Shown: in pieces, positions 10,410 to 54,902 of the stretch | Numbering within the stretch: position 1 is the first letter of the stretch | Layout: each line of letters opens with the position of its first letter | The notes under the pieces: model-generated | What the model saw: the letters and a program-made list of their open reading frames with translations, nothing else | The model's database searches: none | Told to the model about the DNA's origin: nothing | Made by a program: the position numbers and the translations under genes | DNA from: Candidatus Actinomarina sp. | GTDB lineage: Bacteria; Actinomycetota; Acidimicrobiia; Actinomarinales; Actinomarinaceae | Length of the DNA stretch: 64,000 bases | Direction: 5' to 3' | Assembly (NCBI GenBank): GCA_045563135.1 | Contig: JBJKUL010000001.1 | Coordinates: 598,650-662,649, forward strand

Positions 10410-11678
10410 TTAATCAGTAAATGAATTTGTTCTTGAAACTTTGCCAAACCAATAAGCAGATTGGTGTGGTTTTCTTGCAAAAGTATCTCTATCTATTTCT
10501 ACAAGGCCGAAATTCATATTGTAACCAAGATCCCATTCAAAATTATCTAGAAGTGACCAGTATAAGTAACCTATTACCTTGTCTGATCCTTGATTGTATT
10601 CGTGTACATCTTTCAATACATCTTTAACAAACTCGATTCGTTCATCATCATTATCTGTAGCAATACCGTTTTCTGTAATGAATATATCTTTATCAGGGAA
10701 TTTTTCATGTATTCTATGGAGATTATATTTAATAGCTTCAGGCCTATACTCGTATCCCATTTTTGTTTTGCGTACAGACTTAGCAACATAATCATTTCTT
10801 CCTGAGAACGCATCTAAGAATAGAGGGAATATTCTATTTCTTAAAAAAGGGATTTTGATAAGAAAGGCTGCAACAGAGCGATATATTAGATTGGGACTCG
10901 TTCTTTTAATCGAATACGTTTGTAAACCTATAAAATCATCTTGATCTGATGCAAAAAAGAATTTATCTTCGAGATGATATTTAAGATATTGATTAAATAC
11001 ACTTTTATCTTTATCATCCCATTCGTGAAGAGCGTGAGTCATACCAACTTTGGCATTACTATTTTTATTTTTAATTACTTCTAAAGATTGTTTGTGTGCA
11101 TTTATTATATTTTCAGAAGCAGAAATAAATATTTTTTCATTTCTAATCCCAGGAGGAAATTTAGCTTTAGAGAAATATCCAAACATACTAAAAATACCGG
11201 GTTCATTAATTGTATTGTAATATACAACTTCAGAAGGAAGATAATCCATCATTTTCGATACATAATCGACAAATGCATCAGTAGTTTTAGAGGAGGCCCA
11301 GTATCCATATTTAGCAAGCCAATCTGGTGAAGTGAAGTGATGGAAAGTGATTATTGGAGTAATATTTTTTGACAAAAGTTGTTTTGATTTTTCAACATAA
11401 TATTCAATCTCTTCTTCGTTAAAAATATTTTCTTCTGGCTGTATCCTGCTCCATTCCATAGAAAATCGGAAAGCTTTAATACCTAATTTTTCAAGTAAAT
11501 TAATATCGTCTTCTAAATACTCATAATGTTTACATGCTTCATTACATGGTTCTGCGCATACTGTGTTCACCTTATTTTCCCAGTGAGTCCAGTCATTATT
11601 GTAGATGCCACCTTCCACTTGATATGAAGCAACCGCAGTTCCAAATATGAAATCATCCGAAAATTTATAATCAATCAT
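10410..11678 (-). CDS. Glycoside hydrolase family 1 beta-glucosidase
   Basis: It has the GH1 acid/base motif TINEP and nucleophile motif ITENG, plus an N-terminal GTAVASYQVEG. Confidence 0.85.
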   Translation of the reverse strand: MIDYKFSDDFIFGTAVASYQVEGGIYNNDWTHWENKVNTVCAEPCNEACKHYEYLEDDINLLEKLGIKAFRFSMEWSRIQPEENIFNEEEIEYYVEKSKQLLSKNITPIITFHHFTSPDWLAKYGYWASSKTTDAFVDYVSKMMDYLPSEVVYYNTINEPGIFSMFGYFSKAKFPPGIRNEKIFISASENIINAHKQSLEVIKNKNSNAKVGMTHALHEWDDKDKSVFNQYLKYHLEDKFFFASDQDDFIGLQTYSIKRTSPNLIYRSVAAFLIKIPFLRNRIFPLFLDAFSGRNDYVAKSVRKTKMGYEYRPEAIKYNLHRIHEKFPDKDIFITENGIATDNDDERIEFVKDVLKDVHEYNQGSDKVIGYLYWSLLDNFEWDLGYNMNFGLVEIDRDTFARKPHQSAYWFGKVSRTNSFTD

Positions 11679-26145: not shown

Positions 26146-26733
26146 ATGAGCAATAAAGAAAATGAAATACTTGAGTTTATAAACTACACACTCAAAAATG
26201 ATGGTTATTCCCCATCTGTAAGAGAAATTGGTGAAGCTGTAAATCTTAAATCCACAAGCACTGTTCAGTATCATCTAAAAAAACTTGAGAAAAAAGGTGT
26301 TATAAATAAATCAGAAGGTAAATCTAGATCACTACATCTAAATGATATAGCTAGTGAATTTAGATCTGTACCTATTCTTGGTGAAATAGCCGCTGGGTTA
26401 CCTCTAACAGCAGAGGAAAATCAGGTAGGAGAGCTGCCTTACCCAGAAAGCAATTTCAATGATTCTTTAATTGCACTGAAAGTTAACGGTGATTCTATGA
26501 TTGATGCTGGAATTCATGATGGAGATCTTGTGGTTGTTGATAAATCTAAAAAACCGAACAACGGTGACATTGGAGCATTTTTAATTCTCGAAACTGAAGC
26601 CACGGTTAAATACTTAGACACTATAAGGAACAAACAGTATTTAATACCTGCCAATAAAAGTTTTGAAAATATAGAAGTTACTGAAAATATTTCAGCAGTT
26701 GGTAAAGTTGTATCTTTATTTAGAGATATGTAA
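26146..26733 (+). CDS. lexA: LexA repressor
   Basis: It has a winged-helix N-terminus, the cleavage site AAG, the catalytic GDSM Ser and the TVKYL Lys. Confidence 0.9.
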   Translation: MSNKENEILEFINYTLKNDGYSPSVREIGEAVNLKSTSTVQYHLKKLEKKGVINKSEGKSRSLHLNDIASEFRSVPILGEIAAGLPLTAEENQVGELPYPESNFNDSLIALKVNGDSMIDAGIHDGDLVVVDKSKKPNNGDIGAFLILETEATVKYLDTIRNKQYLIPANKSFENIEVTENISAVGKVVSLFRDM

Positions 26734-32068: not shown

Positions 32069-32533
32069 ATGAAGAAGTTAATTTTTTTATTATTAATCAG
32101 TTTTTGTTCTGCTCCTTCATCTGTTGTAAACGAAAATAACGATATGCAGATTACTGATACAGAAAACACTACAGAAAAAGTCTTAACTTATAAAAACGCA
32201 CTTGGAGAATTTGTTGAAGAGGATTTAACAAATAAAAATACACTCGTAGTTTTTTGGGCTGACTACTGAGGAATATGCCGAGAGGAGTTGCCTCTCTTAG
32301 AAAACAATCTAGCTGAACTATCAAAGACTTATGACATCATCGCGCTTGCTCATAGTGATGTAGAGCCAACAATGGAGTGGGTTAAAAATAATTTAATAGG
32401 TAATTTAACAATTGGATTTTCAACAAGTGAGTTACGAGATGAGTTACAGGTAGTTGGTCAACCAATAACAATTATATTTGATACTAATGGAAATATCATA
32501 AGCAGAGAATTTGGCTACATCCCTACGAATTAA
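32069..32533 (+). CDS. TlpA/ResA-like thiol:disulfide oxidoreductase, candidate selenoprotein (in-frame UGA at 32267-32269 read as Sec)
   Basis: The two ORF-track pieces (32069..32269 and 32288..32533) are in the same frame, separated only by TGA plus six sense codons. The read-through product contains VVFWADY-U-GIC-REELPLLE, the classic FWAxWCxxCxxExPxL redox motif with TGA at the first Cys. It also has a signal peptide. Confidence 0.55.
32280..32296 (+). promoter_or_regulatory. SECIS-like stem-loop downstream of the in-frame UGA
   Basis: GAGAGG-AGUUG-CCUCUC has a 6-bp stem and a 5-nt loop with G among its first two bases. The stem starts 10 nt after the UGA and the loop starts 16 nt after it. 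Confidence 0.4.
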
Positions 32534-32600: not shown

Positions 32601-33719
32601 GTGAAAAAAACATTTCTTATTCTACTTTGTCTTTCTATGTTGTTAGTCGCATGTGGCGGCTCAGCAGAAGAAACAGTAGAAGAACCTGCAGTCGTGGAAG
32701 AATCTGAATCTCTTGAATCACCAGCAACAACTGTTGCTCCAGTTCTTGATAAAATTACTTTTGGATTTATCCCTAGTGCAGAGCAAACAGATCTACAAGA
32801 CAATATCAAGCCATTGATGAAAGTACTTTCTGATGGATTAGGTATTGAGGTTGAAGGATTTGTAACCAGTGATTTCTCTGGTTTATTAGTAGCAATGGGT
32901 TCAGGTCAGGCTGACATTGGTGCATTTAACACATTAGGTTATGTAAATGCTCTTAATGTATTTCCTAAAAGAATTGAAGCAGTAGCTAAAGTTGTACGTT
33001 ATGGATCTGGTTCTTACCATGGAACATTTTGGACAACTGACACTAGTGTTTGTACCTCTCCACCTGTAATCGGAGCATTTGAGAATATCAATGGAGTTCC
33101 AACACTAGTTACAGGATCAGAAACAACACCACCAGATGTAGCAGCGCTACAGGTAGGTTGGAGTTTTGGAGATAATGGTTTGGAACCTGAAGTAAGAGAC
33201 AATGGAACCGTTAGCCCAGGTTATGCTTGTGAAGCTGACTTGAAGTCAATGGTTGGTAACACAGTTGTATTCGTTGAAGAAGGATCAACTTCTGGTTATC
33301 TATATCCTTCACTTCAATTGAAAAATATGGGTATTGACTACACAAAAGACATTACCCAAGTATTTGCGGGTTCACATGATGGAGTTATAACAGCTCTATA
33401 CAATGGAGATCACAAATTCGGTGTTACATATGATGACGCACGAAGAACCTTAAGAAAAACTCAATTAGATGTGGGTGAAAAAGTTGTTGCAATAGGAATT
33501 ACAGATGAAATTCCTAACGACGTGGTTGCTGTAAGATCAGACTTGCCTGAAGATATGAAAGCTAAAATATATACAATATTGAAAGAGTACATATCAACAG
33601 ATGAAGGTTATGCAGTAATGGATGAGATATATGGTTGGACAGATATTGTTAAAGCAGATAACTCAGAATTTGATGTTGTTAAACAAGCAGCTGAGGAATT
33701 CGGTCTTTACGACGAATAG
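32601..33719 (+). CDS. phnD: Phosphonate/phosphite ABC transporter substrate-binding lipoprotein
   Basis: It has a GTG start after a GGAGG SD, the lipobox LLVAC|GG, and the PhnD-like motifs FGFIPSAE and EGSTSGYLYP. It lies upstream of phnC and phnE. Confidence 0.8.
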   Translation: MKKTFLILLCLSMLLVACGGSAEETVEEPAVVEESESLESPATTVAPVLDKITFGFIPSAEQTDLQDNIKPLMKVLSDGLGIEVEGFVTSDFSGLLVAMGSGQADIGAFNTLGYVNALNVFPKRIEAVAKVVRYGSGSYHGTFWTTDTSVCTSPPVIGAFENINGVPTLVTGSETTPPDVAALQVGWSFGDNGLEPEVRDNGTVSPGYACEADLKSMVGNTVVFVEEGSTSGYLYPSLQLKNMGIDYTKDITQVFAGSHDGVITALYNGDHKFGVTYDDARRTLRKTQLDVGEKVVAIGITDEIPNDVVAVRSDLPEDMKAKIYTILKEYISTDEGYAVMDEIYGWTDIVKADNSEFDVVKQAAEEFGLYDE

Positions 33720-33730
33720 TATATAGAAAT

Positions 33731-33765
33731 AAGGGGTGGTTAAAAGACTGCCCCTTATTTTTTTT
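33731..33765 (+). terminator. Intrinsic terminator/attenuator between phnD and phnC
   Basis: AAGGGGTGG-TTAAAAGA-CTGCCCCTT is followed by ATTTTTTTT. Confidence 0.6.
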
Positions 33766-33773
33766 GGGAAAAA

Positions 33774-34544
33774 ATGATAAAATTTGAAAATGTGGGTGTT
33801 GTCTATCCAGGCGGAGTTAAAGCACTAGATAATATAAATTTAGAAATCAATGAAGGAGATTTTGTAATTATTGTTGGTCTATCTGGAGCAGGAAAATCAA
33901 CACTCTTAAGATCTATTAATAATTTAGTAAAACCAACAGATGGAAATGTTACTGTTGACGGAAATAATGTAACTAATGCTTCAAAAAAAGAATTAAAACA
34001 GATCCGTTCTGATATTGGAATGATATTTCAGACATTTAACTTAGTCAATCGTTCTAATGTATTAAAAAATGTATTAACTGGAAGATTAAGTCAAGTTTCT
34101 ACAATAAGATCAATAACCGGCTTGTGGCCAAAAGATGATAAACAGATAGCTTTTGATGCATTGCAACGTGTTGAAATTTTAGAAAAGGCATATGTAAGAG
34201 GTTCAAACCTTTCTGGTGGTCAGCAACAGCGAGTAGGTATTGCTCGTGCTTTGGCTCAAAAACCTAAAGTTATGTTAGCAGATGAACCTGTTGCGTCTTT
34301 GGATCCAGTCACTTCAAGAGTAGTAATGAGTTATCTTAAAAAAATAAATCAAGAACTTGGAATAACTACAATAGTAAATCTTCACTTTTTAGACTTAGCA
34401 AAAGAATTTGGCACAAGACTGATTGGACTAAGAGAAGGTAATCTCGTTTATGACGGCAATGTAGATGATGTATCAGATGCGGATTTTGAAAATATTTATG
34501 GAAGGTCAATAAAATCTTCAGATTTAATAGGAGACGATGATTAA
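33774..34544 (+). CDS. phnC: Phosphonate ABC transporter ATP-binding protein
   Basis: It has Walker A GLSGAGKST, the signature LSGGQQQRV, and Walker B MLADEP. Confidence 0.9.
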   Translation: MIKFENVGVVYPGGVKALDNINLEINEGDFVIIVGLSGAGKSTLLRSINNLVKPTDGNVTVDGNNVTNASKKELKQIRSDIGMIFQTFNLVNRSNVLKNVLTGRLSQVSTIRSITGLWPKDDKQIAFDALQRVEILEKAYVRGSNLSGGQQQRVGIARALAQKPKVMLADEPVASLDPVTSRVVMSYLKKINQELGITTIVNLHFLDLAKEFGTRLIGLREGNLVYDGNVDDVSDADFENIYGRSIKSSDLIGDDD

Positions 34545-35319
34545 TCTACCTAAAAAACCACCACCATCATTAATGGTGTTTCTTGGTATCCCGTCAGCAT
34601 TTTTATTTTCCTATTATTGTTTTCTTAAAGTTGGTTTTAATCTTTCCGATTTTAAAGAAAACCTAGAAAATAGATACTTAGTTACAGACCCACTCTTTAA
34701 TCCGAAATGGAGTTGGGCTATTGAAAACGCGTCAGAAGCACTTGTTGAAACAATACAAATAGCTATTCTAGCAAGCATAGTCGGATGCTTTGTTGCTCTA
34801 CCTTTATCTTTCTATGCGTCACAAACAACGAATCAAAATAAAGTCTCCTATTTTCTCTACAAATCGTTTTTAAACTTAGTGCGTACAATTCCAGATTTGT
34901 TCTGGGCAATGATGTTCACTGTTGCTGTTGGACTGGGACCATTTGCTGGTGTATTAGCATTGGTAATGTTCTCACTTGCAATTATGGGTAAGCTTCTTTC
35001 TGAAACAATAGATAGCATTGACCCAGGCCCTCTAGAAGCAGCAAAATCTTCGGGTGCATCTCATAATCAATCTGTCTTTACTTCAGCTTTGCCCCAGGTT
35101 TTACCAAACTTTACTGCATATTTTTTATATATATTCGAACTATGTATACGCGCAAGTGTAATTCTTGGTTTAGTTGGTGCCGGTGGTGTTGGAAGAATTA
35201 TTGAAACACAAAGAATATTTTTAAGATTTGATCGAATATCACCGATAATTGTTTTGATACTACTTGTTGTAATACTAATTGAACAATTTAGTGTATGGCT
35301 AAGAAGAAGGATTTTATGA
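34537..35319 (+). CDS. phnE: Phosphonate ABC transporter permease
   Basis: It has a PhnE-type BPD permease fold with a SIDPGPLEAAKSSGAS EAA-loop. Confidence 0.85.
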   Translation: MINLPKKPPPSLMVFLGIPSAFLFSYYCFLKVGFNLSDFKENLENRYLVTDPLFNPKWSWAIENASEALVETIQIAILASIVGCFVALPLSFYASQTTNQNKVSYFLYKSFLNLVRTIPDLFWAMMFTVAVGLGPFAGVLALVMFSLAIMGKLLSETIDSIDPGPLEAAKSSGASHNQSVFTSALPQVLPNFTAYFLYIFELCIRASVILGLVGAGGVGRIIETQRIFLRFDRISPIIVLILLVVILIEQFSVWLRRRIL

Positions 35320-36119
35320 GCCTTCCTAAACAGCCAATACAGCAAAGAATTTTAAAATATACAATAACAGCATTAATTGTTGTTGGATCAATTTGGTCAG
35401 CTTCTGGTCTTGAAATTACTTTAGAGAAAATACTTAAAGCGCCTGAACAAATTGCGATTTTAGTTGGTGCTATGTTTCCCTTAGATTTAAGTGCTGAAGC
35501 AATCGAAAGAATCCTTCCTAAAGTTGCAGAATCGTTATTTATAGCTTGGGCTGGAACAGTTATAGGTGCGCTGTTCAGTTTCCCGATAGCTTTTTTAGCC
35601 GCTAACAATGTTGCGGTTAACTATATTTCTGAAACTACAAAACAAATACTTAATGGAATAAGAGCATTTCCTGAATTAATACTAGCTTTTGTCTTTCTAC
35701 CAATTACAGGTCTAGGAGCATTAACGGGAACTCTAGCGATAGGTATTCATTCTATAGGCACACTAGGTAAACTATCCTCTGAAGTTATAGAAGGAATTGA
35801 CGAAGGACCGCTGGAAGCAATTAAATCATCAGGTGGATCAAAAATAAATGAATTATTATTTGGTGTCGTACCACAAGTTATGCCAACAATTACTTCATAC
35901 TGGTTATATAGATTCGAAATTAACCTGCGTGCATCAGCTGTTTTAGGTGTTGTTGGTGCAGGTGGTGTTGGAGCTGAGTTAATAAACCAACTAAGATTTA
36001 GAGATTTTCCTAGAGCAGGTACGGTACTAGTCGCAACAGTAGTTCTTGTGTTAACTGTAGATACAATATCAGCTGCAATTAGAAGAAGGATTATTAAGGG
36101 TCGTTCAGTAAAGGTCTAG
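35295..36119 (+). CDS. phnE: Phosphonate ABC transporter permease (second copy)
   Basis: It is a paralog of the previous gene with a GIDEGPLEAIKSSGGS EAA-loop. Confidence 0.85.
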   Translation: MAKKKDFMSLPKQPIQQRILKYTITALIVVGSIWSASGLEITLEKILKAPEQIAILVGAMFPLDLSAEAIERILPKVAESLFIAWAGTVIGALFSFPIAFLAANNVAVNYISETTKQILNGIRAFPELILAFVFLPITGLGALTGTLAIGIHSIGTLGKLSSEVIEGIDEGPLEAIKSSGGSKINELLFGVVPQVMPTITSYWLYRFEINLRASAVLGVVGAGGVGAELINQLRFRDFPRAGTVLVATVVLVLTVDTISAAIRRRIIKGRSVKV

Positions 36120-48568: not shown

Positions 48569-49834
48569 TTACTTAACAATTGGTAAATCTTTAAGATTTG
48601 TTGTGTAGGCCCCAGACTTTCTATCTGCTCTCATTCTCCAATTCTTCTGTATCCCCTGTGCTCCAAGCATCAATGCACCTGATCCGTACTGCTTGTTCAC
48701 TGCATCTAGAGACTTCATGACGGTGTCTGATTTACTGTAGTTTTCACTATCTAGAAGACTACCCTGTTCATTTTTTGCATCTGAAATATTCAAAAGCATC
48801 ACTCCAATTTTCTGATACTCATACCCTGGAAGAAATAATTTGTTCGTAAGTCTTTTTGCTTCTTTTATTATTTTTGAGGTATTGCTTGTTGGGATAGAGA
48901 AATGAGTGCTCATACCATTGCTGTACTGTTTGTCCTTTTCTATATGCGGACTTGTTCTTAGAAATACATATAACCCTTGTGCTCTTGAGTTTTGTTGTCT
49001 TAACTTTTCGCACGCTCGTGCTGTATAGTTTGATACTGCTTCTTCTAGCTCTTGAACACGGGAGACCTTTTTCCCGAAGGACTTTGATGAAATAATATTT
49101 TTTTTATTTTTTACTTCCTCTATCCCTATGCAAGATAAGCCATTTAGTTCATAATGAATTCTCTCTCCTACAATGCTTATTGTCTTTCTAACATGTCTTG
49201 GATTTGCTTCAACTAAATCCTGTGCAGTCTCTATCCCAATTTTTCTTAATCTCCTACCCCATCTTGTTGAGATTCCCCATATTTCTTCTAGGGGGAGATC
49301 TCTTAATATATCTTTTTTTACTTCTAAATTCCTTATATCAAATACATTTTCCGTGGTGTATTTCTTGGCCTGTCTATTCGCAATTTTTGCTAATGTTTTT
49401 GAAGATCCTATCCCAATAGAAACTGGTATCCCCGTCCATTGTTTTATTAGATTTTTAATTTCTTTTGCTGTCTCTTCTAGGTCACAGTAAGCAAAACTGC
49501 TTATATCTAAGAAAGCCTCATCGATAGAGTAAATCTCTATCTCATCAACTAACGACCTTAAGGAGGTCATTACTCTTGCTGACATATCTCCATAAAAAGT
49601 GTAGTTAGACGAAAATACATGAACGTTGTTTCTATTAATTAGCTGCTTATATTTAAAAAATGGTGCTCCCATAGGGATACCTAGAGCTTTTGCTTCATTT
49701 GATCTAGCAATGATGCATCCATCATTATTAGAAAGCACCACAATAGGCTTTCCCTCTAGCTTGGGATTAAAGACCCTTTCACAGGAAGCGTAAAAATTAT
49801 TACAGTCAACTAAGGCAAAAATTTTATTGTTCAT
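48569..49834 (-). CDS. umuC: Y-family DNA polymerase, UmuC-like (Pol V catalytic subunit type)
   Basis: The N-terminus FALVDCNNFYASCERVFNPKLEGKPIVVLSNNDGCIIARSNEAKALGIPMG closely parallels E. coli UmuC as I recall it. The protein is 421 aa. Confidence 0.85.
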   Translation of the reverse strand: MNNKIFALVDCNNFYASCERVFNPKLEGKPIVVLSNNDGCIIARSNEAKALGIPMGAPFFKYKQLINRNNVHVFSSNYTFYGDMSARVMTSLRSLVDEIEIYSIDEAFLDISSFAYCDLEETAKEIKNLIKQWTGIPVSIGIGSSKTLAKIANRQAKKYTTENVFDIRNLEVKKDILRDLPLEEIWGISTRWGRRLRKIGIETAQDLVEANPRHVRKTISIVGERIHYELNGLSCIGIEEVKNKKNIISSKSFGKKVSRVQELEEAVSNYTARACEKLRQQNSRAQGLYVFLRTSPHIEKDKQYSNGMSTHFSIPTSNTSKIIKEAKRLTNKLFLPGYEYQKIGVMLLNISDAKNEQGSLLDSENYSKSDTVMKSLDAVNKQYGSGALMLGAQGIQKNWRMRADRKSGAYTTNLKDLPIVK

Positions 49835-49848
49835 TCACTTACTCCTTT

Positions 49849-49866
49849 GAATACTGTACACTATTC
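49849..49866. promoter_or_regulatory. 18-nt near-perfect palindrome in the umuC / umuD-like divergent promoter
   Basis: GAATAcTGTACAcTATTC has 16 of 18 positions symmetric. It is centred in the 54-nt gap between the two start codons and does not fit the GAAC-N4-GTTC boxes seen at recA and lexA. Confidence 0.45.
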
Positions 49867-49888
49867 TAAAGAAAAAGAAAGACATTTT

Positions 49889-50404
49889 ATGCCTAGAGGT
49901 GGTGCACGAAAAGGAGCTGGAAGGCCTAAGGGTCTCGGCAAGTATGGAGAAAAAACTACTGCCATGAGGATACCTTTAAGCAAAGTTCAGTATGTTTCAG
50001 AAATTGTAAACAAAGGTCTTCATGAGATTCCTTTGTATGCAAACAGTGTCTCGGCTGGATTCCCCTCTCCCGCAGATGATTACCTTGAAGAAAAGGTAGA
50101 TCTTAATCAGTATCTAGTAAAGCATCCAGCGTCTACTTTTCTTGTTCGAGCATCTGGGGAATCTATGATTAATGCAGGAATTTTTCCAAAAGACATACTT
50201 GTTGTTGATAGGAGTTTAAAAGCAGAAAATGGAAAAGTAGTCATTGCCGTTGTTGATGGTGAGCTTACTGTTAAGAGATATGTTAAAAAAGGAAAGAATA
50301 TCTTATTGAAGCCTGAGAATGATTCTTTTGATCCAATTGTTATTAATGATGACAGTGAAGCATATATCTGGGGTGTTGTTACAAACGTTATCCACAACCT
50401 GTAA
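49889..50404 (+). CDS. umuD: UmuD-like S24 autopeptidase with an N-terminal basic AT-hook-like extension
   Basis: It contains VSAGFPSPADDY (Ala-Gly cleavage site), GESM (Ser), TVKRY (Lys), and an N-terminal PRGGARKGAGRPKGLGK. The start is set at the ATG at 49889 rather than the ORF-track TTG at 49847, which would cover the palindrome. Confidence 0.8.
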   Translation: MPRGGARKGAGRPKGLGKYGEKTTAMRIPLSKVQYVSEIVNKGLHEIPLYANSVSAGFPSPADDYLEEKVDLNQYLVKHPASTFLVRASGESMINAGIFPKDILVVDRSLKAENGKVVIAVVDGELTVKRYVKKGKNILLKPENDSFDPIVINDDSEAYIWGVVTNVIHNL

Positions 50405-52018: not shown

Positions 52019-52525
52019 CTAGTGCCCACCTCTAGGCACACCTCCATATTTCATCCTTGTATCCCCCATATAGGCAATACGTTCATCGGTTTCCATTGTT
52101 TTGCAATCTACAACTTCACCAACATAGAGAGTGTGTGTCCCGTAATCGTGTACATTCTTTTTTCTAAGTTCAAACCATACAAGAGCATTATCAAATATTG
52201 GAACATTGTTTTCAGTGAGAGTTATGGGTTCCTTGTTTAAAAAGCCCTCTGTGTGTACTGCAGGTTTTGAAAATTTAACAAATACCTTTGTGTACTTTTC
52301 AGAAAATAAATTAATCGTAAAATAGTCACTATCTGACATTAATTTATGAGTTACGCTCTTATTGTCAATACCTACAGCTATAAGCAATGGGTTCATGTTT
52401 ATTTGAGTAATCCAACTTGCAGTCATTCCATTATATGAATTTTTACTACCTGAGCCAATAATTCCTAATGGGCTTGGAATCTTCCATGTAGCAACATTTA
52501 GCTCTTCATCTGAGACTTTGCTCAT
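52019..52525 (-). CDS. Flavin reductase-like (FMN-binding split barrel) protein
   Basis: It is 168 aa with MTASWITQINMNPLLIAVGI typical of the flavin reductase domain. Its start overlaps the radical SAM stop (ATGA). Confidence 0.75.
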   Translation of the reverse strand: MSKVSDEELNVATWKIPSPLGIIGSGSKNSYNGMTASWITQINMNPLLIAVGIDNKSVTHKLMSDSDYFTINLFSEKYTKVFVKFSKPAVHTEGFLNKEPITLTENNVPIFDNALVWFELRKKNVHDYGTHTLYVGEVVDCKTMETDERIAYMGDTRMKYGGVPRGGH

Positions 52526-53865
52526 ATTAAGGCCTTGTTTGATTTTATTCTCTCTAATTGAATCTTATTAGGCTCAGCACAACAGAACCATGTTTCTGAA
52601 AGTTTAGGAACTTTTCTTTTCTTATAGTTTCCAGATTTAAGAAGATTCTGCTTAGAATATTGTTCTATAATTTTAACTATTCCAAGATACTGTGCGTACT
52701 CATCCAATGATTCATTATGAAGAACATAAGTGAATAAATCATTTTGTAGTTTATCCATATCTGGAGACATATATCTCCATGAATATGAAAAAGATGATGG
52801 ATCATATTCCTCTAAGTAGTTATTAATATCGGGATCATTAAGTATTAAAGAGTTTTTAGGGACAAGTAATTTAATAGTAAGTTGAATTGGGTCTACCGTT
52901 TCTCTGAGTCTATATTCTTCAATCAACTTAATAATATTTGGTAAGTCTTGTTTTTCTGTCCACGGGGAAAAGGGCATCCAGGTTGGCCTTATGTCAATAC
53001 TGTGTGAAAGAGAAAACTCAACAGCACTATTTAAATCAAGTGATGAATGGTTTTTCTTTAAAATATTGAGGACCTTGTCATTTGTTGTCTCGAATGCTGA
53101 AATAACAAAAAGCATATTAAGGTTTTTTAGCTCTTTAAAATAATCAGGATATTTTAAAATATGTTCCACTTTAATAGTTGAATCATATGTTAGATCTGGA
53201 TGTTCAATATTTAGAGCCTCCAATATTTTCAAGGCATGTTTAGGTCCATTGAAAAAATCTGGATCATTAAATGAGATGTGCTTTGCACCGGCTTCAACCT
53301 GATTAGAGACATCTTTTAAGATTTTATCTGTACCAAATGTTTTGAATGTTCCATTAAATTCAATAGGTACCGGACAGTGGGTACATTCATGTTTACATCC
53401 ATAGGTAGTTTCAACTGAGCCTGCTATTAGATTATTTGAGCCATCAACAATATGAGAGTAGTCAGTTATAGAAGGAAGAACAGTTCTATCAGGAACGGAG
53501 TGCTTGAAAGAATACTCCTCATTGAGTTGGACATTTAATAAGGATTCCAAATCTGCATTATCTAAATTTTGAATTATTTCAAAGTTTTGAAACATTTCTT
53601 TAAATACTTTTGCATAGAGGCCAAAAACAAATAACTTATTTGGTAAATCTTTGTTGCGTAAGTATTCTTCTGCAAGAACAGAAGCTGTATGCATCGAAGC
53701 GTAAACACCCAAAGCATCATAATTTTTTAAATTTAGAGTTTTTTCTTCAACGGAATAATCAACAATGTCGATTTCGTTTGTACCATTATTTAGTTTTTGA
53801 TACAGCTCTGAAATTATTTTTGGCTGTTTTCCAAGATCATAAAAAGATAGGAGAAGAATCTTCAA
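52522..53865 (-). CDS. Radical SAM protein with B12-binding-like N-domain and C-terminal CCAEP tail
   Basis: It has the CxxxCxxC cluster GCKHECTHCP and a C-terminus ...SETWFCCAEPNKIQLER. I recall an NCBI family named for a CUAEP/CCAEP tail (Sec or Cys). This is the Cys form. Confidence 0.8.
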   Translation of the reverse strand: MKILLLSFYDLGKQPKIISELYQKLNNGTNEIDIVDYSVEEKTLNLKNYDALGVYASMHTASVLAEEYLRNKDLPNKLFVFGLYAKVFKEMFQNFEIIQNLDNADLESLLNVQLNEEYSFKHSVPDRTVLPSITDYSHIVDGSNNLIAGSVETTYGCKHECTHCPVPIEFNGTFKTFGTDKILKDVSNQVEAGAKHISFNDPDFFNGPKHALKILEALNIEHPDLTYDSTIKVEHILKYPDYFKELKNLNMLFVISAFETTNDKVLNILKKNHSSLDLNSAVEFSLSHSIDIRPTWMPFSPWTEKQDLPNIIKLIEEYRLRETVDPIQLTIKLLVPKNSLILNDPDINNYLEEYDPSSFSYSWRYMSPDMDKLQNDLFTYVLHNESLDEYAQYLGIVKIIEQYSKQNLLKSGNYKKRKVPKLSETWFCCAEPNKIQLERIKSNKALI

Positions 53866-54902
53866 TTTATTTCTTTGATAAATTCTAATGTTGGAATATC
53901 AATTGGAAGTGAGAGTGATAACTCTGTTACCTTAGAATCTTTCCAATAATTTAATTTTTCTTCAATGTCTTTTTTAGTACCAACAAGGGTTAAATCTCTA
54001 AGTAAATCATCAGGAAATAGGTCCTCAGCTTCTTGTTTCTTCCCACTTAAATATAAATTCTGGATTTCAGTAGCAATTTCCTCATATCCATACTCACACA
54101 TAAGATTGAAATAGAAATTTTTATCTTTAGCACCCATACCTCCAACATATAAAGTATATGTTGTTCTTGCTGGCTTCAAGTATTCATCAACTTCATGTTC
54201 TTCGCATAGTCTTGCAAAAACTGTGGCAACGATATTAAATTCTTTATCTTTGTTGGGTACTCCTGATTTTTCAAATCCTTTTTTAAGATAGTCTTTAAAA
54301 ACCATATCTCCTTTTGTTGGCGAATACATGAATGGCAACCAACCATCAGCAACTTCAGCAGATAACTCGATATTTTTTGGCCCAATAGCTGCAAGATAAA
54401 TAGGAATATTATTTCTTAGTGGTGGCTCAATTAGTTTAAGTGGCTTGCCAAGATTTAAGGAATCGGGACCATTGTAAGGAAGGTTATAAAATTCTCCATC
54501 AAAAACTACCTTGTTTTCTCTTTGAAATATTTCTCTAATTATCTTTATATACTCTCTTGTTCTAGATAGTGGTTTTGAATATGGTTGCCCATGCCATCCC
54601 TCTACAACTTGCGGACCAGATACTCCCAGTCCAAGTCTAAATCTCCCATTAGAAAGCTTATCCAGGGTTATAGCGGTCATTGCAGTCATAGCAGGGGTTC
54701 TTCCTGGTATCTGCATAATTCCTGAACCGATATTTATATTTTTAGTGATTGCAGAGAAATAAGATAGTGGTGTAACAGCATCATAACCATAAGCCTCAGC
54801 AGTCCATATACATGAAAACCCTAAATCATCTAATTTACTGATAAGTTCGTGATCATCCGAAATATGGGGACCAAAATATCCAACGTTTATGCTTAAATCC
54901 AT
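53862..54902 (-). CDS. LLM class flavin/F420-dependent oxidoreductase
   Basis: It has a luciferase-like TIM barrel (FSCIWTAEAYGYDA, RFRLGLGVSGPQVVEGWHG). Its stop overlaps the radical SAM start. Confidence 0.8.
   Translation of the reverse strand: MDLSINVGYFGPHISDDHELISKLDDLGFSCIWTAEAYGYDAVTPLSYFSAITKNINIGSGIMQIPGRTPAMTAMTAITLDKLSNGRFRLGLGVSGPQVVEGWHGQPYSKPLSRTREYIKIIREIFQRENKVVFDGEFYNLPYNGPDSLNLGKPLKLIEPPLRNNIPIYLAAIGPKNIELSAEVADGWLPFMYSPTKGDMVFKDYLKKGFEKSGVPNKDKEFNIVATVFARLCEEHEVDEYLKPARTTYTLYVGGMGAKDKNFYFNLMCEYGYEEIATEIQNLYLSGKKQEAEDLFPDDLLRDLTLVGTKKDIEEKLNYWKDSKVTELSLSLPIDIPTLEFIKEIN

Follow-up and report, generated by a model that had tools for sequence, protein, structure and literature searches.

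We describe a candidate selenoprotein gene, and the hairpin that may direct selenocysteine (Sec) insertion into its product, in a stretch of DNA from Candidatus Actinomarina sp. (assembly GCA_045563135.1, contig JBJKUL010000001.1). The whole stretch analyzed, 64,000 nucleotides long, is referred to here as the window. The gene occupies positions 32069 to 32533 of the forward strand and carries one in-frame UGA (32267 to 32269), which we judge, with a probability of roughly 0.88, to encode Sec in an exported thiol-disulfide oxidoreductase. Actinomarinales are among the most abundant and the smallest free-living bacteria of the surface ocean.

Reading from the ATG at 32069 meets a single internal TGA and continues through 154 codons to a TAA stop at 32531 to 32533; translation, family searches, and a structure model all support this extent of the gene. 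Two open reading frames (ORFs), 32069..32269 and 32288..32533, lie in the same frame, and six sense codons (GGA ATA TGC CGA GAG GAG) separate the TGA from the TTG at 32288 that starts the second. Read-through gives a 154-residue product containing ...VVFWADY-U-GIC-REELPLLE..., so that the shared frame, the lone TGA, and the product length are all as described in a first-pass annotation made from the letters and predicted ORFs. That annotation had also placed the stop at the attacking Cys of an FWAxW-CxxC motif, and profile alignments to PDB sequences agree, with the TGA codon facing the first Cys of W-C-x-x-C. On the evidence of these alignments and of orthologue DNA, the predicted U67 stands in place of the N-terminal nucleophilic Cys of CxxC. 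The resolving Cys70 of UxxC (32276 to 32278) is the sole invariant column (C67 in the natural Cys form P0044) of a 92-sequence alignment of the family and its remote homologues. At the cis-proline loop position, Pro132 of G-Q-P (32462 to 32464; P129 of P0044) is invariant in the family, and at least 90% of the remote homologues in the same alignment keep the proline of G-x-P; by analogy with the family, Pro132 is presumably in the cis conformation.

In a scan of genomes representing species, the orthologue was confined to 21 species of Candidatus Actinomarinales/Ca. Actinomarina (OCS155 clade), and the Sec codon is TGA in all 21, as it is in metagenome contigs. Among 32 distinct orthologue DNAs, which come from single-amplified genomes, metagenome-assembled genomes, and metagenomes, 31 have TGA at this position (29 of 30 close relatives and two divergent forms), and the remaining one, contig L008 (LUMQ01006488.1), has TGC. 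Alignment of the orthologues, a check set beforehand to distinguish Cys or TGA from truncation, showed none to be truncated or degraded; together with conservation of the hairpin discussed below, this supports the site-specific UGA-to-Sec recoding proposed in the first-pass annotation.

Selection on the region beyond the TGA is strong. Against six orthologues at a synonymous divergence (dS) of about 1 to 2, the ratio of nonsynonymous to synonymous change (dN/dS) 3′ of the TGA is 0.05 to 0.14, indicating strong purifying selection. Codons 68 to 71 (G-I-C-R), directly 3′ of the TGA, are invariant in amino acid and variable at synonymous positions, and codon 74, the TTG listed as a restart codon, is TTA in four orthologues. 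From these three observations it follows that translation runs through the TGA, and since the codons on either side of it are conserved as one frame, the ribosome must read through the UGA at 32267 to 32269.

Two alternative readings are thereby ruled out. The first, which the first-pass annotation had left standing as a very recent pseudogene, holds that a nonsense change from TGT, TGC, or TGG in a Cys- or Trp-containing gene, or a sequencing error, created the TGA. Each of those codons is one base from TGA, L008 has TGC, and public protein predictions give “W” at the site; nevertheless, a TGA shared by 31 of 32 DNAs across dS of about 1 to 2 and from three kinds of source material, followed by a region under purifying selection, effectively excludes a broken gene or a base-calling error. 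The “W” was traced to DNA reading TGA in the two clusters checked (see below). The second alternative is that the locus makes two products, a 66-residue lipopeptide ending at the TGA and an 81-residue protein starting from the TTG at 32288, as NCBI assemblies that call both ORFs separately would have it. Such a split would break the thioredoxin fold just where its active site lies; residues 68 to 73, between the TGA and the TTG, are invariant with synonymous variation, the TTG is not kept in four orthologues, and in the structure model the entire chain makes up a single domain. We consider separate products very unlikely.

The L008 protein differs from the TGA-form protein P0099 at the Sec site and at one further residue (T/S, in ...STM[T/S]WVSE...), and its DNA keeps the stem of the hairpin with the loop AGUUA, which is also the loop of three TGA-bearing species. 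Either Sec was recently converted to Cys in L008, or the contig is an assembly variant. Cys-form homologues (P0044, P0123 with CPTC, and P0126 with CITC) have TGC or TGT at the site. The CITC form, 150 residues long, is encoded directly after gyrA and a DUF3566 gene on low-GC marine contigs (L036 to L038), and is possibly a paralogue near the replication origin.

The genetic code offers a further alternative, namely genome-wide reassignment of UGA, to Trp under code 4 or to Gly under code 25. In its favor, GC content is low (33% in the genome, 31 to 36% in the window), and metagenome gene callers have chosen code 4 for 119 of the 120 homologues listed in the protein catalogue. Against this, the stops of 63 window ORFs are TAA in 45, TAG in 13, and TGA in five, and the five that end in TGA (at 11671, 35317, 52522, 53862, and 60321) are genes of normal length with usual overlaps. 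TGA is therefore a normal, rare stop, as the first-pass annotation had stated with 11671 to 11673 as its example. The same annotation held that no other gene in the window is interrupted: of the candidates from a scan for TGA-interrupted frames, 32069..32533 alone was free of overlap with another ORF, and inspection of all window gaps longer than 150 nucleotides (nt) revealed no second split gene. Moreover, Trp or Gly at the nucleophilic Cys would inactivate the enzyme, homologues have Cys there, and the lineage belongs to Actinomycetota. The standard code is in use, and we give reassignment next to no credence. As a separate observation, all five TGA stops overlap the start of the next gene (by 4, 8, or 25 nt), and no free-standing gene in the window ends in TGA.

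Public annotations of this gene are affected in two ways. Assemblies GCA_045563235.1 and GCA_002168855.1 carry the sequence of the window (with an identical substrate-binding protein), and in them the gene is called as ORFs of 66 and 81 amino acids. In the protein catalogue, which holds 363 homologues (56 to 97% identity among the 120 listed), the Sec site is Trp in 119 of the 120 listed (P0001 to P0120) and Cys in one. For P0001 and P0099, represented by seven contigs, the DNA at the “W” is TGA, and callers had applied code 4 to low-GC contigs. The same artefact is seen at the Sec site of SelD, which appears as GWACK. Because the gene is either split or given a Trp, both its function and its selenium demand have been missed.

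The first-pass annotation had assigned the product to the TlpA/ResA-like oxidoreductases, and Pfam, PDB profiles, structure prediction, and structural search converge on that fold and family (cd02966; Redoxin/AhpC-TSA clan of Pfam). Pfam matches above their cut-offs (in parentheses) are AhpC-TSA at 31.1 bits (26), Redoxin at 29.4 (26.6), and Thioredoxin at 27.4 (23.5), with PF00578 the best; a profile search of PDB sequences matches TlpA-like thiol-disulfide oxidoreductases. The best NCBIfam matches all score far below their equivalog cut-offs: ResA (NF002854, 33.1 versus 170), TlpA (NF047696, 28.9 versus 230), DsbE (TIGR00385, 34.9 versus 123), and StoA (NF041202, 30.2 versus 210). The homologues form a tight, Actinomarinales-centered clade, with six representatives below 1e-30 and the next thioredoxin-like proteins at about 55 bits or less, and share the signature FWADY-U-GIC-REELPLLE...ALAHS...GFST...GQP.

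An AlphaFold2 (AF2) model of the natural Cys form P0044, built from the 92-sequence alignment, has a predicted local distance difference test (pLDDT) score of 86.7; a first model, from a 13-sequence alignment, reached a pLDDT of 48 and was discarded. The model (elements E35-39, E45-49, E54-60, H65-76, and so on) has a thioredoxin fold with an N-terminal beta-hairpin and a central insert, and the whole chain forms one domain. UxxC (U67-G-I-C70), with Sec instead of Cys at its first position, precedes helix H65-76 of the model. About seven residues past the final strand the chain ends, apparently without the usual C-terminal helix. Foldseek matched the model to Chlorobaculum tepidum DsbE (3gl3), Bacillus subtilis ResA (2f9s/1st9), Mycobacterium tuberculosis DsbF (3ios), pneumococcal Etrx (4hqz; Etrx1/2), and TlpA (1jfu), each with a probability of 1.00, and also to CcmG; template modeling (TM) scores were 0.65 to 0.75 and E values 1e-8 to 1e-10. 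At the N terminus, a predicted lipoprotein signal peptide (32069 to 32107, forward strand), read from the sequence by eye, comprises MKK, a hydrophobic core, and a lipobox-like ISF-C13. Cys13 is present in at least 90% of orthologues, some of which have a canonical lipobox (IAAC, TTAC). The product is thus a probable exported, membrane-anchored lipoprotein and, with a UxxC in a TlpA/ResA/DsbE-like fold, probably acts as an extracytoplasmic thiol-disulfide reductase.

Directly after the UGA, within codons R71-E-E-L-P-L76, lies a hairpin of the bacterial Sec insertion sequence (bSECIS) type, GAGAGG-AGUUG-CCUCUC, with a 6-bp stem and a 5-nt loop (32280 to 32296, forward strand). It begins 10 nt after the UGA and its loop follows after 16 nt, with G as the second loop base (positions 2 and 3 are G and U); sequence, coordinates, and spacing are all as the first-pass annotation had given them. 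The minimum free energy (MFE) structure contains this hairpin, at -9.3 to -9.9 kcal/mol. Published bSECIS constraints are a loop of 3 to 9 nt, a stem of 4 to 16 bp, and G in the first two loop positions, together with a UGA-to-loop distance of 16 to 37 nt and an MFE of at most -7.5 kcal/mol (PMC13188914). The hairpin satisfies all four constraints of that source, with its 16-nt spacing at the lower limit.

Evidence that the hairpin matters comes from its codons. Only eight of 57 invariant degenerate residues lack synonymous variation across 30 DNAs, and five of the eight are codons 72, 73, 75, 76, and 78 (hypergeometric P = 2.5e-4 for such clustering). The stem codons GAG-GAG...CCT-CTC are invariant in these 30 DNAs though rare in the genome, where Glu is encoded by GAG in 22% of cases and Leu by CTC in 5.6% (joint expectation, 1.1e-3). 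Two divergent Sec forms, P0121 and P0122 (DNA L033 and L034), came from an exhaustive search of representatives and have TGA followed by the helix GACGGG-AGUUG-CCUGU(U/C), with a G-C to C-G swap at pair 3 and further wobble changes. In a 15-sequence alignment, all 90 pair cells hold standard pairs, a result matched by three of 500 shuffles; in sum, one pair is compensatory and three are wobble variable. By comparison, the Cys forms P0123 and P0126 are without the hairpin, and P0123 encodes the same R-E-L-P-V motif by other codons. These patterns show selection on the hairpin at the RNA level. A search of the window at Rfam gathering thresholds and a permissive search of 32150 to 32450 together returned nothing but tRNAs and noise; to our knowledge, Rfam holds no usable bacterial SECIS model.

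If UGA is recoded, the lineage should hold the means to do so. The first report of Sec use in this lineage dates from 2026 and describes selC, selA, selD, and a divergent selB in 84 of 84 complete Actinomarina genomes; it predicts about five selenoproteins per genome, one of them a Sec-form SelD whose prefix is MRLT (“Actinomarina, resolved,” preprint 10.64898/2026.04.03.716425). We reached the same SelD by another path. A DNA pattern scan of metagenomes for the SelD motif led to low-GC contigs L058 and L138 and from them to a marine SelD family, all 28 full-length members of which start MRLTEYSHG[SA]G-W-ACK, with TGA in the DNA at the “W.” The 90% cluster of this SelD includes GenBank entry AGQ18952.1, “selenophosphate synthase [Candidatus Actinomarina minuta],” and the gene is present as well in a single-cell assembly from GORG (L172). 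The Actinomarina selD sequences (L159 to L172) have an in-frame TGA (G-U-A-C-K) and, 9 nt after the UGA, a 6-bp hairpin, CUCUCC-CAA-GGAGAG, with no consensus G in its loop. The lineage thus has two unrelated genes that each carry a conserved UGA at a catalytic Cys followed by a hairpin at a like distance, which strongly implies, from comparative evidence, working Sec insertion at the level of the lineage.

Another low-GC marine lineage (L117, L131, L044, L102, L146) has a Sec-form SelD, IRL[ST]TLSHGSG-U-ACK, encoded beside SUF genes. Assignment of the SelDs of L117 and L131 to Actinobacteria was considered and rejected on account of the SUF genes, the C-terminal sorting tails of Por/type IX secretion system (T9SS) type in L117, and the 2-oxoacid:ferredoxin oxidoreductase genes on the L131 contig. 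The L117 group probably belongs to the Fibrobacteres-Chlorobi-Bacteroidetes (FCB) group or Marinimicrobia.

By the Escherichia coli paradigm, SelB-GTP carrying Sec-tRNA(Sec) would bind the hairpin at the UGA and insert Sec in competition with release factor 2. The product would then be exported and lipidated at Cys13, and at the outer face of the membrane the U67-x-x-C70 pair could reduce the disulfides or sulfenates of substrates. Candidate substrates are apocytochrome c, copper proteins of the Sco/CoxB type, or methionine sulfoxide reductase, and a membrane reductase of the CcdA/DsbD type might recycle the enzyme. As the faster nucleophile, and one that resists irreversible overoxidation, Sec would suit a sunlit, oxic habitat.

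Several observations weigh against this interpretation. No sel gene or tRNA-Sec was found in the 64-kb window or in syntenic loci, where tRNA-Sec was sought with ARAGORN in the window and 22 related loci and sel genes by reading the window proteins by eye (the window tRNAs are three, for Val, Cys, and Gly). The case for selA, selB, and selC draws on a preprint that is not peer reviewed and covers the genus Actinomarina, and the window orthologue is 54 to 59% identical to the orthologues of that genus. Taken by itself, the folding energy lacks significance against shuffled sequence (z = -1.27; 23 of 200 shuffles are at least as stable) and was for that reason not used as evidence. Within the core family the stem exhibits invariance and A-U to G-U changes, with no compensatory covariation; the sole compensatory pair comes from two related divergent sequences, and the conserved REELPLL peptide partly confounds stem conservation. 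The physiological substrate and redox partner are proposals, and the Sec assignment itself is a prediction from sequence comparison.

This last point leaves room for read-through that is free of selenium, in which Cys or Trp comes from a near-cognate tRNA, or Cys from a tRNA(Sec) charged with it, while the hairpin slows termination. Such a reading could appeal to the comparative nature of the Sec assignment, to sel genes known at the level of the lineage rather than from this genome, and to the Cys variant of L008 as a sign that Cys is tolerated. Yet the selD of the lineage itself carries TGA, selA, selB, and selC are reported for the sister genus, and the hairpin fits the bSECIS geometry of the SelB type. 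Furthermore, TGA is held across the order with TGC one mutation away, which argues that the encoded residue differs from Cys. We therefore hold selenium-free read-through to be improbable, with a small chance of being correct, and favor Sec insertion at U67.

Thioredoxin-fold selenoproteins with UxxC have been known from marine metagenomes since 2004 to 2005 (PMC1088965, PMC13188914). Families described from bacterial genomes and from the Sargasso Sea and Global Ocean Sampling (GOS) data include Prx-like, thiol:disulfide interchange, thiol-disulfide isomerase-like, Redoxin, and “UGC TlpA” proteins (PMC1088965, PMC13188914). The Actinomarinales gene has in common with them the fold superfamily, UxxC, Sec at the N-terminal nucleophile, a bSECIS directly after the UGA, the existence of Cys homologues, and an origin in marine surface metagenomes; with the Prx-like selenoproteins it also shares PF00578 as best Pfam match. 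It differs from these families, compared by description, in forming a tight clade with a signature of its own and no NCBIfam model at cut-off. Given these differences and the report of Sec use in the lineage only in 2026, the family appears, on a comparison by description, to be new, or at least unnamed, within the known thioredoxin-like selenoproteins.

The nearest functional comparison is with the extracytoplasmic, membrane-anchored thioredoxins, namely, ResA (B. subtilis), TlpA (Bradyrhizobium), CcmG/DsbE, DsbF/DsbE (M. tuberculosis), and Etrx1/Etrx2 (Streptococcus pneumoniae). Likenesses are the N-terminal beta-hairpin, FWAxW-CxxC-xxE-xP, the cis-Pro loop, export with a membrane anchor (predicted here), and probably dependence on a CcdA/DsbD-type reductase. 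The Actinomarinales protein differs in having Sec for the first Cys and apparently no C-terminal helix, and its gene lies outside any cytochrome c maturation operon, with cinA on one side and either a Phn-type ABC cassette or ftsK on the other. NF041054 (“ResA-like WAxxUGC motif-containing protein”) and SaoT (NF040730, of the SAO operon) are likewise ResA/thioredoxin-like selenoproteins with a WAxxU motif, and SaoT also adjoins ABC transporter genes; however, NF041054 describes a protein of 354 residues and scores 20.7 bits here against a cut-off of 300, and SaoT gave no match at E ≤ 0.1. The 2026 preprint treats the selenoproteome of the same order, within the scope of the genus Actinomarina, whereas the window was judged to fall in another genus of Actinomarinales; the MRLT-prefix SelD of the preprint was recovered independently here. 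Its main text and supplement name no thioredoxin-like family, and it found no SECIS, having used Rfam models only (10.64898/2026.04.03.716425).

The gene is single copy and syntenic and has TGA in every Actinomarinales species examined. These properties prompt the tentative idea, which we consider possible but doubtful, that this probably exported UxxC lipoprotein is one core client forcing streamlined genomes of about 1.1 Mb to keep the Sec machinery. Were this so, a monoderm bacterium would have an extracytoplasmic selenoenzyme of wide distribution, and the bSECIS serving it would be unusually minimal, with 17 nt placed at the shortest spacing allowed and written into the conserved REELPLL motif of the active site. 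Recognition of the gene supplies the Sec machinery recently reported for the lineage with a named selenoprotein target found across the order, and marine selenium demand gains a probably exported redox enzyme as one more reason. The contrast between hairpin-bearing Sec forms and Cys forms that lack the hairpin is a clean natural test set for bacterial SECIS rules, and the family offers a concrete peptide for searches of ocean metaproteomes. Knowledge of how selenoproteins work is unchanged; the practical value is in the correction of annotations and in a target for metaproteomics and SECIS work.

Gene order in the window is actinobacterial (infB-rbfA-nrnA-truB-ribF, pnp, dapB-dapA, ftsK, cinA-recA, miaB-miaA-dapF, lexA-nrdR), and across the order the selenoprotein gene lies between miaB-recA-cinA on one side and phnDCEE and ftsK on the other. 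A contig titled “Methanobacteriota archaeon isolate MED870” (L013; PAEE01000009.1) bears this Actinomarinales block, miaB-recA-cinA-selenoprotein-phnDCEE-ftsK, and, with a RecA 94% identical to that of the window, is evidently mis-binned. Downstream of the selenoprotein gene, a PhnD/C/E/E-type ABC transporter (32601 to 36119, forward strand; NCBIfam TIGR01098 above cut-off) is context that probably lies outside the system, and no terminator-like site was found between the two. Functional coupling to this transporter, for instance through selenium or phosphite uptake, was considered and is unlikely because the cassette is missing in three of the 21 species (L015, L017, L018), which retain the selenoprotein gene. 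A weak match of its substrate-binding protein to TIGR04553 (“putative selenate ABC transporter SBP”), at 62 bits against a cut-off of 250, was rejected as support for coupling. A Sao-like system was also rejected; besides the lack of a SaoT match, the substrate-binding protein matched neither SaoB nor SaoX at E ≤ 1e-5. Identity of the Phn cassette to that of the window is bimodal (95 to 97% or 76 to 82%) versus 86 to 94% everywhere for recA (L009 to L029), a pattern that suggests exchange of the cassette between lineages.

Elsewhere in the window, the first-pass annotation had assigned a radical SAM protein (52522 to 53865, reverse strand) to a family with Sec/Cys tail variants, and its best match is indeed NF040546 (“CUAEP/CCAEP-tail radical SAM (seleno)protein”), with a score of 377 bits, below the cut-off of 500. 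The protein ends ...WFCCAEPNK, the Cys form CCAEP, and its gene lies in an overlapping operon with genes for an F420-dependent LLM oxidoreductase (53862 to 54902) and a flavin reductase (52019 to 52525). Judged from their translations, a divergent pair at 48569 to 50404 encodes a Y-family DNA polymerase and a LexA/UmuD-like S24 peptidase, the latter additional to the canonical lexA at 26146 to 26733.

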